DNA from: Candidatus Woesearchaeota archaeon
GTDB lineage: Archaea > Nanobdellota > Nanobdellia > UBA10117
Direction: 5' to 3'
DNA: 32,000 bases
NCBI GenBank assembly: GCA_964619325.1
Contig: CAZUEL010000002.1
Span: forward strand, 8,276 to 40,275
Below the pieces are notes generated by a model. It worked only from the letters and a program-made list of their open reading frames with translations, did not search any database and was not told the origin of the DNA. The position numbers and the translations under genes are program-made. Positions 15,807 through 20,851 of this stretch are shown one piece after another (positions within the stretch are counted from its first letter, which is position 1; each line of letters starts with the position of its first letter).

Positions 15807-15922
15807 TAGTTTCAGAATTAGCGCCGCGGCTTTAGGCAGTACACCGGAAACTTGGGCTAGAAGTAAATACTAAATCTGCCTGTATGCGTTGTTCGCCCAT
15901 AACCAGAAACCGAACCACAGCG

Positions 15923-15930
15923 TTTATAAA
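15923..15930 (+). promoter_or_regulatory. TATA box (tttataaa) for the DUF1858 gene
   Basis: Ends 22 nt upstream of ATG 15952. Confidence 0.55.
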
Positions 15931-15951
15931 TCTTGGGAAAGCGGCAATCTT

Positions 15952-16332
15952 ATGCTTAATCCGTTCAAGAAAGAGCAGCCGCTTACGCCAAGCCAGAAGG
16001 CTGTCCTCGGAATAAAAGACGCGCCAGAACCTGCGCAGAGTGTGGGCGCGCAAGCAGCACAGCAGCTTGGCCAATACGTCACAAAAGATATGATTCTCGG
16101 CGACATAGTTGAAAGATTCCCACAAGCAGTTTTTGTGATGTCTCAATTCGGGCTGCACTGTGTCGGCTGCCACGCAAATGTTTTTGACACGGTGGAGGCT
16201 GGCGCGAAGGCACATGGCATGCCAGATGAAGAAATAAACGAGATGCTGGCTGAGGTGAACAAGGTGATTGCGGACAGCGAGAGGGAAGCCGAGGCAGAGC
16301 TGAATAAATTGAAGGCAGACGAGCAAAAATAG
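15952..16332 (+). CDS. DUF1858 / hybrid-cluster-protein-associated redox-disulfide domain protein
   Basis: TKDMILGDIVERFPQAVFVMSQFGLHCVGCHANVFDTVEAGAKAHGM contains the family CxxC core. Start set to ATG 15952 by promoter spacing. 126 aa. Confidence 0.7.
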   Translation: MLNPFKKEQPLTPSQKAVLGIKDAPEPAQSVGAQAAQQLGQYVTKDMILGDIVERFPQAVFVMSQFGLHCVGCHANVFDTVEAGAKAHGMPDEEINEMLAEVNKVIADSEREAEAELNKLKADEQK

Positions 16333-16341: not shown

Positions 16342-16403
16342 AAAGCATTTATAAACACTTTAAGCGGAAAAACAGCCCTGACGTATGCCGATTTTACTGC
16401 ATG

Positions 16404-16417
16404 GAAAGGCTTAAAAG
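16404..16417 (+). promoter_or_regulatory. BRE/TATA promoter (gaaaggcttaaaag) for the histone-fold/polB operon
   Basis: The aaggcttaaa motif recurs at 23722 and 28432. Predicted TSS is about 16437-16439. Confidence 0.55.
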
Positions 16418-16438: not shown

Positions 16439-16903
16439 GTGATAGTTATGACAGACGAAATTCAGACACAAGAGCCGCAGTTAGATGCCCAGGAACCTGA
16501 GGAGCAGGCCACAGAGGCAGCGGAAGCTGTGCCAGTGGAGAAGACAGCAGAGGGCGAGGTCCTCCCCTTCCCTAGAGCAAGAGTAGTCTCTATCATGCGC
16601 ACAGAGATCAAGGACAAAATCATTCGCTCAGAGGTAAAAGAGGCGATGAATTTCTGGATCGGCAACTTACTAAAAAGAATTGCAAAAGAGATGAACAACT
16701 CAATGTATGGCTCAGTCAGCATCGCAGACTTTCAAAGGGCAACCAAGCCATATGATATGGTTGAGGACATCGTCAAAGACCAGGAAAGACTGATTGTCAG
16801 CTGCGAGAAATTAAAGCTAGATTCAGACTCCATCCGGAGAGAGATGTTGAGATTCTTTGCTACTATCCGAGGCAAGCCACTGGACGCTGAAACGCAGATG
16901 TGA
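16439..16903 (+). CDS. histone-fold protein (CBF/NF-Y/archaeal-histone-like) with an acidic N-terminal tail and a C-terminal extension
   Basis: LPFPRARVVSIMRTEI..IRSEVKEAMNFWIGNLLKRIAKEM..VSIADFQRA fits the helix-loop-long helix-loop-helix pattern. Start is GTG 16439 or ATG 16448. The TGA stop overlaps the polB ATG. Confidence 0.7.
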   Translation: MIVMTDEIQTQEPQLDAQEPEEQATEAAEAVPVEKTAEGEVLPFPRARVVSIMRTEIKDKIIRSEVKEAMNFWIGNLLKRIAKEMNNSMYGSVSIADFQRATKPYDMVEDIVKDQERLIVSCEKLKLDSDSIRREMLRFFATIRGKPLDAETQM

Positions 16904-19359
16904 TGGCAGCTGAGAAAACAAAGATTCAATTTTATATTTCAGATGTAGACTACGATGCCAGCCAGAACAGCATACGCATTTTCGGCCTGACAAACGACAG
17001 AAAGCGCATAATAATCTTCGACCGGACTTTCAAACCATATTTTTATGCAGTCCTGGCTGATGATGCCGAGCCGGCCAGGGTGCTAGAGCTGCTCAGAACG
17101 ACAAAACTCAACTACCAAGGCGAAGAGGTTAAAATAATCCACGTCAAGCTGGAGGAAAAGCGATTTTTAACAACGGCAGTGAAGGTCATAAAAATTTTTG
17201 CCGAAACACCAAGCCACATTCCAATCTTGCAGGATGCAGTAAAAGAAACCTATGGCATTGCGGCAAGAACAGAGTACGATATAAAATTTTTCAAGCGATA
17301 TTTAGTTGATAAAAACTTAATGCCGCTCGCCCTCGCAGAAGCTACTGTCGAGCCGGGCAGCGCCCGTTTCGATGGCATAGATTATGTTTTCGAAGCGGAG
17401 AGCGTCAAGCAGCTCTCCACAGATGCAGTGCCTAATCTGAAGCTCTTGGCGTTTGATATAGAAACACTTTCTTCCGGCCCGTTCCCACAGCCGAACAAAG
17501 ACCCGATCATAATGATTTCATTCTATGGCTCGGATGGCTTCAAAAAAATCTTGAGCTGGAAAAAGTTCAAGGATGCAGGCAACTATGTCACATTTGTCGA
17601 CTCTGAAATAAATCTTATTGAAGAATTTATAAAAACAATAACGACTTACAAACCAGATTTATTGGTTGGTTACGGCTCTGACAACTTTGACTTTCCCTTC
17701 CTGCAGATTCGGGCGGCGAAATACGGCCTGAACTTGGACATCAGCTGGGCTGGGCTACCGGTTTACATCGGAACCAAAGGCAGATCCGCAGCAAAAACAA
17801 AGGGTTGCCAGCACTTAGATATCTCGCACTTCATCCGAAACATCATGGATTTGCAAACCGAAAGGTACAAATTAGATTCTGTTGCTAAGGAATTACTTGG
17901 CCGCGGAAAATTAGGTGGCGTTGATCCAAAAAACATCGCTGACATCTGGAGTAGCGGTGACGAGGACAGACTGAGAAATCTTGCGGAATACAATCTAGTT
18001 GATTCCGAGCTGGCACTGATGATTACAGAAAAAATCCTGCCGACAGAGATGCAGCTCATGAAATTGCTCGGCCTGCCCCTGTTCGAAATAAATAGGATGA
18101 CTTATGGCCAACTGGTTGAGTGGTATTGCATCCGGAATGCTGCACAGTTTGGCCAGCTCGTGCCACGCAAGCCAAAGAACTGGGAGGTGTTTGAGCGCCG
18201 TAAGACGAGCTATGAAGGCGCATTTGTTGTAAAACCAAAGCCTGGGTTGTACAAAAATATCCACGTGTTTGATTTCAGAAGCCTATACGCTACGATTGCT
18301 GCATCGCACAACATCGGGCCGGATTCTGTGAACTGCTCTTGTTGCGCGGATGATGGGCGGGCAAAAATCGGAAGTGTGCATTTCTGCCAGAAGGAAAAAA
18401 GTTTCTACGCGACTTTGCTTGGCGACTTAGTTGAACGCAGAAAGAGAATCGGTGAGATCCTGAAAACCACGCCGCAGGACGACCCATCGCACCAGGACTT
18501 GATTGCACGCAGGCATGCCCTGAAATATGTTGCCGCATCATTCTACGGCTATCTGGGCTTTGCAGGCTCCCGCTGGTATTCGGTAGACTGCGCACAAACA
18601 ATCACATACTTAGGCAGGAGTTACATTCAAACTGTCATCAAGACCGCGGAGAAGTTCGGCTTTGAAGTGCTTTATGGTGACACAGACTCATTGTTTTTAA
18701 CTTCCAAAGCTGAAGTTGATACAAATAAGTTCTTGGATATTGTTAACTCTGCACTACCGAAACCCATGGAGCTTGAACACAGAGATTCTTTTGCGGCGGG
18801 ATTGTTTTTGGAAGCTAAGGGCAAGGCTGGCGGAGCAAAGAAAAGATATGCATTATTATCTAATTCCGGAAATGTTGTTTTGAAAGGGCTTGAGGCGGTG
18901 CGCGGCGACTGGTCAATGCTGGCAAGGCGGGCGCAACGGACAGCAATTGAACAAATACTGAAGGATGGCTCGCCTGAACAGGCTGCAGCCTTTGTGCAAA
19001 ACATAATCAAGGATGTTCGCAACCGAAAAGTTGATTTGAAGGACCTAGTGATCGAAGTCCGGCTCACTCGGGATTTGAATCGCTATGCGTCTAGGGGGCC
19101 GCATGTTGCTGCTGGCCTGATCGCTGCACAGCGTGGGGAACGAGTCGGCCGCGGAAGTTTAGTTCGGTTTATCGTGAACGCTGGGGCCGGCAAAATCTCC
19201 GACCGAGTTGCCCTGGAAGAAGACGCCACACTGGACAGCTACGATCCAGATTACTACATTGACAACCAGATAATGCGGGCAGTCTTCAAGCTCTTTGAAA
19301 TCTTCAACTACGATGTGAGCAAGCTGAAGGCAGGGCAGGCTACGCTGGGGAGTTTCTAG
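16903..19359 (+). CDS. polB: family B DNA polymerase
   Basis: ExoI FDIET, ExoII NFDFPFL, ExoIII YNLVDSEL, motif A DFRSLYATIA, motif B KYVAASFYGY, motif C YGDTDS. Confidence 0.95.
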   Translation: MAAEKTKIQFYISDVDYDASQNSIRIFGLTNDRKRIIIFDRTFKPYFYAVLADDAEPARVLELLRTTKLNYQGEEVKIIHVKLEEKRFLTTAVKVIKIFAETPSHIPILQDAVKETYGIAARTEYDIKFFKRYLVDKNLMPLALAEATVEPGSARFDGIDYVFEAESVKQLSTDAVPNLKLLAFDIETLSSGPFPQPNKDPIIMISFYGSDGFKKILSWKKFKDAGNYVTFVDSEINLIEEFIKTITTYKPDLLVGYGSDNFDFPFLQIRAAKYGLNLDISWAGLPVYIGTKGRSAAKTKGCQHLDISHFIRNIMDLQTERYKLDSVAKELLGRGKLGGVDPKNIADIWSSGDEDRLRNLAEYNLVDSELALMITEKILPTEMQLMKLLGLPLFEINRMTYGQLVEWYCIRNAAQFGQLVPRKPKNWEVFERRKTSYEGAFVVKPKPGLYKNIHVFDFRSLYATIAASHNIGPDSVNCSCCADDGRAKIGSVHFCQKEKSFYATLLGDLVERRKRIGEILKTTPQDDPSHQDLIARRHALKYVAASFYGYLGFAGSRWYSVDCAQTITYLGRSYIQTVIKTAEKFGFEVLYGDTDSLFLTSKAEVDTNKFLDIVNSALPKPMELEHRDSFAAGLFLEAKGKAGGAKKRYALLSNSGNVVLKGLEAVRGDWSMLARRAQRTAIEQILKDGSPEQAAAFVQNIIKDVRNRKVDLKDLVIEVRLTRDLNRYASRGPHVAAGLIAAQRGERVGRGSLVRFIVNAGAGKISDRVALEEDATLDSYDPDYYIDNQIMRAVFKLFEIFNYDVSKLKAGQATLGSF

Positions 19360-19907
19360 GCTTCGTAAACATAGCCCCAACCAGGCTGCCAACCAGCCTT
19401 TTTCAATCGCCAGTCTTCTTTCATTGCCTGCTGCCAAGTTCTGCCTCTGACGATTACATCAAGCGCTAACTGCGGTGCTTGATGTGCTACAATAGCAATG
19501 TGCTTACCACCAAACTTCTTTACTAAAAAATTCAGGAAGTCGCGCATTCTCGCCTCAACATCCTTATAACTTTCTCCGTTGGAGAATGCCGTATCAATAC
19601 GCTTCAACATTAATGCATGGACTTTTTCTGACAGCGCACCATTCAAGTCACCGTAATTACACTCGCGCAGCCTTTTATCTTGAATTATTTTAACAAATTT
19701 GCCGAACGTTAGATTTGCGGACTCAACCGCGCGCCGTAAATCCGAGCAAAACACAACGTCAAACTTTTTGCCTTTGATTTGCGCTCTCAATTTTATAGAT
19801 TGTGCGATTCCTAGTTTTGAAAGTTCACCGGGCAGCCAGCCAGTCGAGCGGTCTTGTTCATTGTCAGTCGTAGTTCCGTGAACGAAATAAGTTATAATTA
19901 CTTTCAT
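19356..19907 (-). CDS. histidine phosphatase superfamily protein (phosphoglycerate mutase-like)
   Basis: VHGTTTDNE (RHG-type motif with R replaced by V), SDLRRAVESA, RLRECNYGDLNG, GES, VAHQ. Confidence 0.75.
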   Translation of the reverse strand: MKVIITYFVHGTTTDNEQDRSTGWLPGELSKLGIAQSIKLRAQIKGKKFDVVFCSDLRRAVESANLTFGKFVKIIQDKRLRECNYGDLNGALSEKVHALMLKRIDTAFSNGESYKDVEARMRDFLNFLVKKFGGKHIAIVAHQAPQLALDVIVRGRTWQQAMKEDWRLKKAGWQPGWGYVYEA

Positions 19908-19957: not shown

Positions 19958-20851
19958 ATGTACTCCAAATCTGAACTCGACAAACTGATGAAGGCAGGCC
20001 AGATAGCAGCGAAAGCCCGCGAATACGGAAAAACCCTGGTGAAAGAGGGCGCTTCCGTTCTGGAGATCGCAGATAAAATAGAGGCAAAGATGATTGAGCT
20101 GGGTGGCCAGCCTGCGTTCCCGACAGATGTTTCGATTAATGAGATGGCTGCACACCACTGCCCCGCGTTCGGCGAAAAAACAATTCTGAAAAAAGGTGAC
20201 CTGGTAAAACTAGATTTAGGCGCACACATTGATGGATACATGTCCGACACCGCGGTCACGATCTCGGTTGGAAATGTAAAGGAGGATTTACTGCTGATAA
20301 AAGCTGTCGAAGATGCACTTGCTGCTGCAATTAAATTAGCAACACCGGGCCGCGAAGTTTGGGAAATCGGCAAGGCCATCCAGGACACAATCACAAAGGC
20401 CGGCTTCGCTCCAATCCGGAACTTATCGGGCCACTTGATACAAAGGCATGACCTGCACTCGGACATCACAATTCCAAACACAAACAACCGGAACAAAACA
20501 AAACTGGAGGACGGCATGGTAATCGCAATCGAGCCATTCGCAACACCCGGCGACGGCTTGGTCAATGATGTCCGCGAGTTCCAAGTTTTCCGCGTTAAGA
20601 ACGTAAAAAATATGCGCACCAACCGCGACGTTTTAGAATTTGTTTTAGATACTTACGAAACAATGCCGTTCTGCGCACGCTGGCTCATCAAAAAGTTTGG
20701 CGTGCTGAAAACCAATCTCGCTCTGAAGGAAATGGTTGCGAAAGGGATTCTGCACGAGTACACTGGCCTCAAAGAAATTTCAGAAAAAAACGCAGCGCAG
20801 GCCGAACATACTATCATCATCGGCCAGACACCGGTTGTTACAACAGCTTAG
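19958..20851 (+). CDS. map: methionine aminopeptidase, type 2 (archaeal)
   Basis: 297 aa. FPTDVSINEMAAHH, DLGAHIDGYMSDTA, GHLIQRHDLH, IEPFAT and AQAEHTIII, plus the type-2 helical insert. Confidence 0.95.
   Translation: MYSKSELDKLMKAGQIAAKAREYGKTLVKEGASVLEIADKIEAKMIELGGQPAFPTDVSINEMAAHHCPAFGEKTILKKGDLVKLDLGAHIDGYMSDTAVTISVGNVKEDLLLIKAVEDALAAAIKLATPGREVWEIGKAIQDTITKAGFAPIRNLSGHLIQRHDLHSDITIPNTNNRNKTKLEDGMVIAIEPFATPGDGLVNDVREFQVFRVKNVKNMRTNRDVLEFVLDTYETMPFCARWLIKKFGVLKTNLALKEMVAKGILHEYTGLKEISEKNAAQAEHTIIIGQTPVVTTA

Follow-up and report, generated by a model that had tools for sequence, protein, structure and literature searches.

A coiled-coil histone encoded directly upstream of family-B DNA polymerase in a DPANN archaeal order

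The small gene that directly precedes polB, the family-B DNA polymerase gene, in a 32,000-nucleotide stretch of a Candidatus Woesearchaeota genome (hereafter the window) encodes, to judge from sequence and model comparison, a member of the published coiled-coil (CC) histone family. Its product is very probably a DNA-bridging chromatin protein that is co-expressed with polB and does not depend on PolB, and comparison across related genomes indicates that the gene is an operon neighbour of polB rather than the gene of a dedicated polymerase subunit. These observations extend a histone family published in 2024 by one DPANN member and one gene context, and the same loci record repeated apparent loss of polB. 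The source genome is 782 kb and 92% complete, and homologs of the histone carry the source labels Nanoarchaeia or DPANN. The locus comprises the following features, numbered by their positions in the window.

16348-16355, plus strand: TATA-like TTTATAAA, a candidate promoter upstream of the histone gene, proposed from the sequence
16411-16417: second AT-rich element, TTAAAAG, upstream of the histone gene
16439-16443, plus strand: GTGAT, a probable Shine-Dalgarno-like element
16448-16903, plus strand: CC (HMfC-type) histone gene, 151 aa, assigned by HMfC homology, hhalign and an AlphaFold2 model
16901-16905, plus strand: TGATG stop-start overlap of 1 nt, in which the last letter of TGA (16901-16903) is also the first of the polB ATG (16903-16905)
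16903-19359, plus strand: family-B DNA polymerase (polB), 818 aa, carrying both exonuclease and polymerase motifs
19356-19907, minus strand: histidine-phosphatase gene, between polB and map and outside the conserved histone-polB-map run
19958-20851, plus strand: methionine aminopeptidase (M24), map, third gene of the conserved histone-polB-map run

The ORF at 16439-16903 (plus strand), described in an earlier note as encoding 154 aa, was confirmed as an ORF, and its start was revised. Translation likely begins at ATG 16448 (151 aa), since close relatives start at the equivalent methionine (M-x-D-E-I) and the GTGAT just upstream resembles a ribosome-binding site; on the same grounds GTG 16439 was rejected as the start. 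In several relatives GTGAT or GAGGTG likewise sits just 5′ of the ATG. The TATA-like TTTATAAA recurs at -99/-100 in two related genomes (G014 and G006), and a sigma-70 promoter scan was set aside as not applicable to archaea. Upstream of the histone gene, at 15889-16332 on the plus strand, lies a gene for a DUF1858/hybrid-cluster-associated redox protein followed by a T-run; such a gene is found near the histone in just one other locus among those examined. PolB itself carries the motifs DIET at residue 185, FDFRSLY at 456 and YGDTDS at 591, and ends in QATLGSF, which we take to be PIP-box-like.

The architecture of the histone was derived from Pfam, Foldseek and an AlphaFold2 model built on a 66-sequence alignment (pLDDT 87.8), which replaced an earlier model from a narrow alignment (pLDDT 64). 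Helices are predicted at residues 43-53, 61-82, 92-103 and 105-141, and the protein can be divided as follows.

16448-16561, plus strand: acidic, variable N-terminal tail, residues 1-38, with 12 D/E and 1 K/R and low pLDDT
16562-16756, plus strand: histone fold, residues 39-103, supported by Pfam, the model and Foldseek
16760-16870, plus strand: long C-terminal helix of the model, residues 105-141 (37 residues), a putative tetramerisation coiled coil

The histone fold, the acidic tail, the helical C-terminal extension (about 48 residues) and the lack of an RKT motif in loop 2, where the sequence reads YGSV, had all been proposed in the earlier note and were borne out. The PF00808 match is weak for this protein (E 0.031), the same Pfam entry matching 45 of 66 family members, and the Foldseek matches of the model are all histone folds. 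Within the fold, R43, R45, R51, R60 and K64 are basic α1-face residues. The C-terminal helix is modelled with pLDDT mostly above 95, and among the 66 members it shows a 3-4 hydrophobic repeat at positions 105, 108, 115/116, 119, 122, 126, 129, 133 and 137. The model contains one histone fold and a single long helix instead of two tandem folds, by which a DUF1931 double histone was ruled out. A PDB sequence search with the single histone protein returned no significant match, and structure searches with the model gave no significant or specific match, the top matches being generic histone folds; the nearest Atlas structures belong to archaeal clusters, among which Methanobacteriota are commonest (TM about 0.6).

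CC histones are an archaeal family described by Schwab et al. 2024 (PMC11390915), who list them in Nanoarchaeota and other archaea and characterise them by a long C-terminal helix, acidic disordered tails, which are common and not obligatory, and a predicted back-to-back tetramer. One member, HMfC (Mfer0945, E3GZL0) of Methanothermus fervidus, has been shown experimentally to bridge DNA (PMC11390915). HMfC was located through both of its termini, derived from the cloning primers in PMC11390915, in a search of 329 Methanobacteria genomes; the sole match (L191:1501-1833) is a protein of 110 aa that starts with MEEKLPFA and ends with FDLTSKL. The window's histone is 38% identical to it over 102 of its 110 residues with one gap (E 3e-19), and profile comparison by hhalign gives a probability of 98.8. 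The two share an LPF motif, the histone fold and a long amphipathic C-terminal helix. The acidic tail is present here, as in most CC histones, whereas HMfC is without one. The protein belongs to a published family, and the reading of it as a new Dpb3/Dpb4-like partner is not supported. A profile made from the 113 close homologs of the histone extends to 95 clusters at the 50% level, with proteins of Methanobrevibacter and Nanohaloarchaea among them, and a profile drawn from the window's own order alone finds a homolog at each of the 80 loci in the Methanobacteria scan (E 4e-14 to 9e-25). The DNA-binding positions of the CC logo (R32, K35, R45 and K49) would correspond to R14, R17, R27 and K31 of HMfC and to S48, R51, R60 and K64 here when mapped by spacing; under this mapping three of the four proposed positions are basic, position 48 being serine and not arginine, and the conserved R43 and R45 come in addition. 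Another family member, P0117 (276 aa), has two matched stretches and is possibly a tandem double CC histone.

From HMfC and the models of Schwab et al., the histone would be expected to form a homodimer through its fold, and two such dimers would, by homology, join back to back through their C-terminal helices to give a tetramer. In this arrangement the two basic α1 faces could each take hold of DNA and so bridge a pair of duplexes, with the acidic tail as a possible brake on DNA binding. Such a protein would act in chromosome organisation. C-terminal extensions proposed to tetramerise two histone dimers are also found in other bridging histones, namely MJ1647 of the Methanococcales and the RdgC histones (PMC11390915). 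By their descriptions these are separate sequence families, the Mc histones being limited to Methanococcales and the RdgC histones sitting in an operon with RdgC-like and TM genes, which is absent here; an RdgC histone was ruled out since the downstream genes are polB and map.

The idea that the ORF is instead an ordinary nucleosomal histone of the HMf type to which tails have been added is most unlikely. It draws on the weak PF00808 match and on a fold similar to that of HPhA (Z 5.3, rmsd 1.5, 62 aligned), and the nucleosomal HMfA/B do have the histone fold in common with the window's protein. HMfA/B, however, are about 68 aa long, carry RKT in loop 2 and have no long C-terminal helix, whereas the protein studied here is without RKT, possesses the extra 37-residue helix and resembles HMfC far more closely. 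Furthermore, the canonical RKT histone of the source genome is encoded by a different gene, located on another contig (C5:6744, E 5e-17). Across the order, a short canonical histone (PF00808) was detected in 17 of 39 genomes, a count from which short divergent histones may be missing, compared with 32 of 39 for the CC histone, so that the CC histone may be the main or only histone of some reduced genomes.

The CC histone and polB are closely linked within this DPANN order. Among the 32 histone-bearing genomes polB lies directly 3′ of the histone in 26, and the two genes are adjacent in 26/26 genomes where both were assembled together, counts that come from related genomes and are therefore non-independent observations. 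The arrangement, which the earlier note had put forward for a survey of related archaea, is accordingly not unique to the window. The conserved run is histone-polB-map, often with a cysRS or HTH gene upstream and with cdc48 converging, and polB-map spacing is also tight in most genomes of the order; the run resembles an old housekeeping operon of compact genomes. The histone is the first gene of this old, tightly packed run and, from the gene spacing, is probably co-transcribed with polB. Searches of the literature turned up no paper that connects CC histones with polB, and we found no such link in the CC section of PMC11390915. In two genomes polB is contained in two ORFs (G034, L227:1361-3846; G002, L226:1762-4138), those of G034 encoding 484 and 344 aa and overlapping by 4 nt, which could reflect a split gene, decay or assembly error.

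The TGATG junction is present as the earlier note had reported. Stop-start overlap does not, however, imply stoichiometric production, which had been read from it. In the source genome ATG overlaps of 1 or 4 nt occur at 52 of 404 (13%) close same-strand gene pairs, and against this background there is nothing unusual in the histone-polB overlap by itself. Of 25 histone-polB junctions measured in the order, 20 overlap and every one falls within 16 nt. This regularity, the invariable adjacency of the pair where both were assembled together, and the fact that the order's histones group in a clade of their own, set on a long branch and with its own invariant residues, are what can be said for an accessory factor comparable to the Dpb3-Dpb4 pair of Pol epsilon, in which a histone dimer would bind PolB, hold the nascent dsDNA and raise processivity. 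The distinct clade, to which HMfC does not belong, makes an added function conceivable, and the order's histone could have gained one. Nevertheless an accessory factor of this kind is very improbable in the light of the genomes from which polB is missing.

Orthologous polB was not found in 6 of the 32 histone-bearing genomes (G006, G010, G023, G025, G027 and G028), which are 83-89% complete. Five of these (G006, G010, G023, G025 and G028) gave no PolB family match at all and retain PolD, and in the sixth, G027, the only PolB is a distant one located elsewhere (26% identical). In G010, G027 and G028 map is the next gene after the histone and shares its contig, and in G025 one small ORF comes between the two, as would be expected if polB had been deleted from the run. 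On the histone tree the six genomes are spread over five separate positions, one of them sister to the window's genus, and the pattern in G006, G010, G023, G025 and G028 (L073-L078) suggests repeated loss of polB from the histone-polB-map run. In the histones of all six, 93% of the 41 positions conserved in polB-linked copies are retained, with a core identity of 63-65% versus 66% in the polB-linked ones, so conservation is unchanged where the polymerase is not found. The overlap, moreover, is reused with unrelated genes: in G006, G023 and G025 the 1-nt overlap with the histone involves a glycosyltransferase and two ORFs of no known function. Since related genomes retain the histone after loss of the polymerase, the histone is not dedicated to polB, contrary to the earlier proposal, and exclusive occurrence with the polymerase, a trait of a Dpb3/Dpb4-like subunit, is not what these genomes display. 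In G025 the ORF that takes the place of polB (L075:4683-5003, minus strand) encodes 106 aa, starts with MGCGQCG, has no Pfam match and overlaps by 1 nt. In G023, where PolB was not found, a family-X DNA polymerase gene lies about 1.3 kb 3′ of the histone (L078:6658-7638, minus strand).

In eukaryotes Dpb3 and Dpb4 form a heterodimer that binds the polymerase, whereas the locus holds one gene of a homo-oligomeric family that persists without polB, and the likeness to Dpb3/Dpb4 (POLE3/POLE4) is confined to the histone fold. The Dpb4-Dpb3 entry 5y27_B aligns to the model with Z 5.4 and rmsd 5.2 over 81 residues at 10% identity, on a par with H3, TAFs, CENP-S/X and HPhA, while NF-YB and H2B score weakly against the histone and alike. 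The prediction of a complex between a histone dimer (residues 38-139, two copies) and PolB (8-803) scored 0.00 in two runs and was counted neither for nor against the accessory reading, which also has to contend with an activity already measured in the family, the bridging of DNA by HMfC (PMC11390915). A paper on the Asgard replisome leaves histones and Dpb3/4 unmentioned. A PolB-histone complex, if it did form, would be an archaeal counterpart of Dpb3/Dpb4; the comparative evidence points away from such a dedicated role. We know of no earlier archaeal counterpart of these subunits.

Outside the order no polB adjoins a CC histone at any sampled locus, and at the 80 loci of the Methanobacteria scan none occurs within 5 kb. 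In five genomes of other orders (G040, G057, G072, G081 and G090) the histone and polB are on different contigs, which further weakens the case for an accessory factor. The methanobacterial CC histones have nadC-like and ZPR1-like neighbours (named from sequence), HMfC preceding a convergent ZPR1-like gene where the window's histone directly precedes polB, and at other loci the CC histone stands by a thermosome gene, a DUF362 ferredoxin gene or unknown genes. In another family of the class, four genomes have the histone upstream of a gene for a fused PriS-PriL primase, either immediately next to it or at a distance of up to about 1.2 kb, and in two of the four GINS51 follows the primase gene. 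In two further genomes the primase lies 1.6-3.7 kb from the histone.

These replication contexts bear on the reason for the gene's position. It is possible, though doubtful, that the placement of the CC histone reflects selection for co-expression with replication genes, so that a bridging histone would be supplied during copying without binding to PolB; this idea refines the preferred reading rather than excluding it. It agrees with the position of the histone ahead of polB across the order and with the recurrence of primase and GINS contexts in separate lineages. The run, however, includes map as well and has cysRS and cdc48 close by, which gives it the look of a mixed housekeeping cluster; the other neighbours, among them the nadC-like, ZPR1-like, thermosome and ferredoxin genes, have a similar bearing, and the shared ancestry of the genomes limits the weight of the recurrence. 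A further suggestion, which seems improbable, is that the order's CC histone is still a chromatin protein and is in addition associated with the replisome, where it would bind or be co-expressed with PolB and bridge sister duplexes or load new DNA, as an independent parallel to Pol epsilon. The preferred reading remains that of a DNA-bridging CC histone with polB as its operon neighbour.

Where the histone neighbours the primase gene, at L063:2588-8888, L066, L068 and L071, it lies between a radical-SAM activase gene and the fused PriS-PriL primase gene. The large gene upstream of the activase perhaps encodes an anaerobic ribonucleotide reductase.
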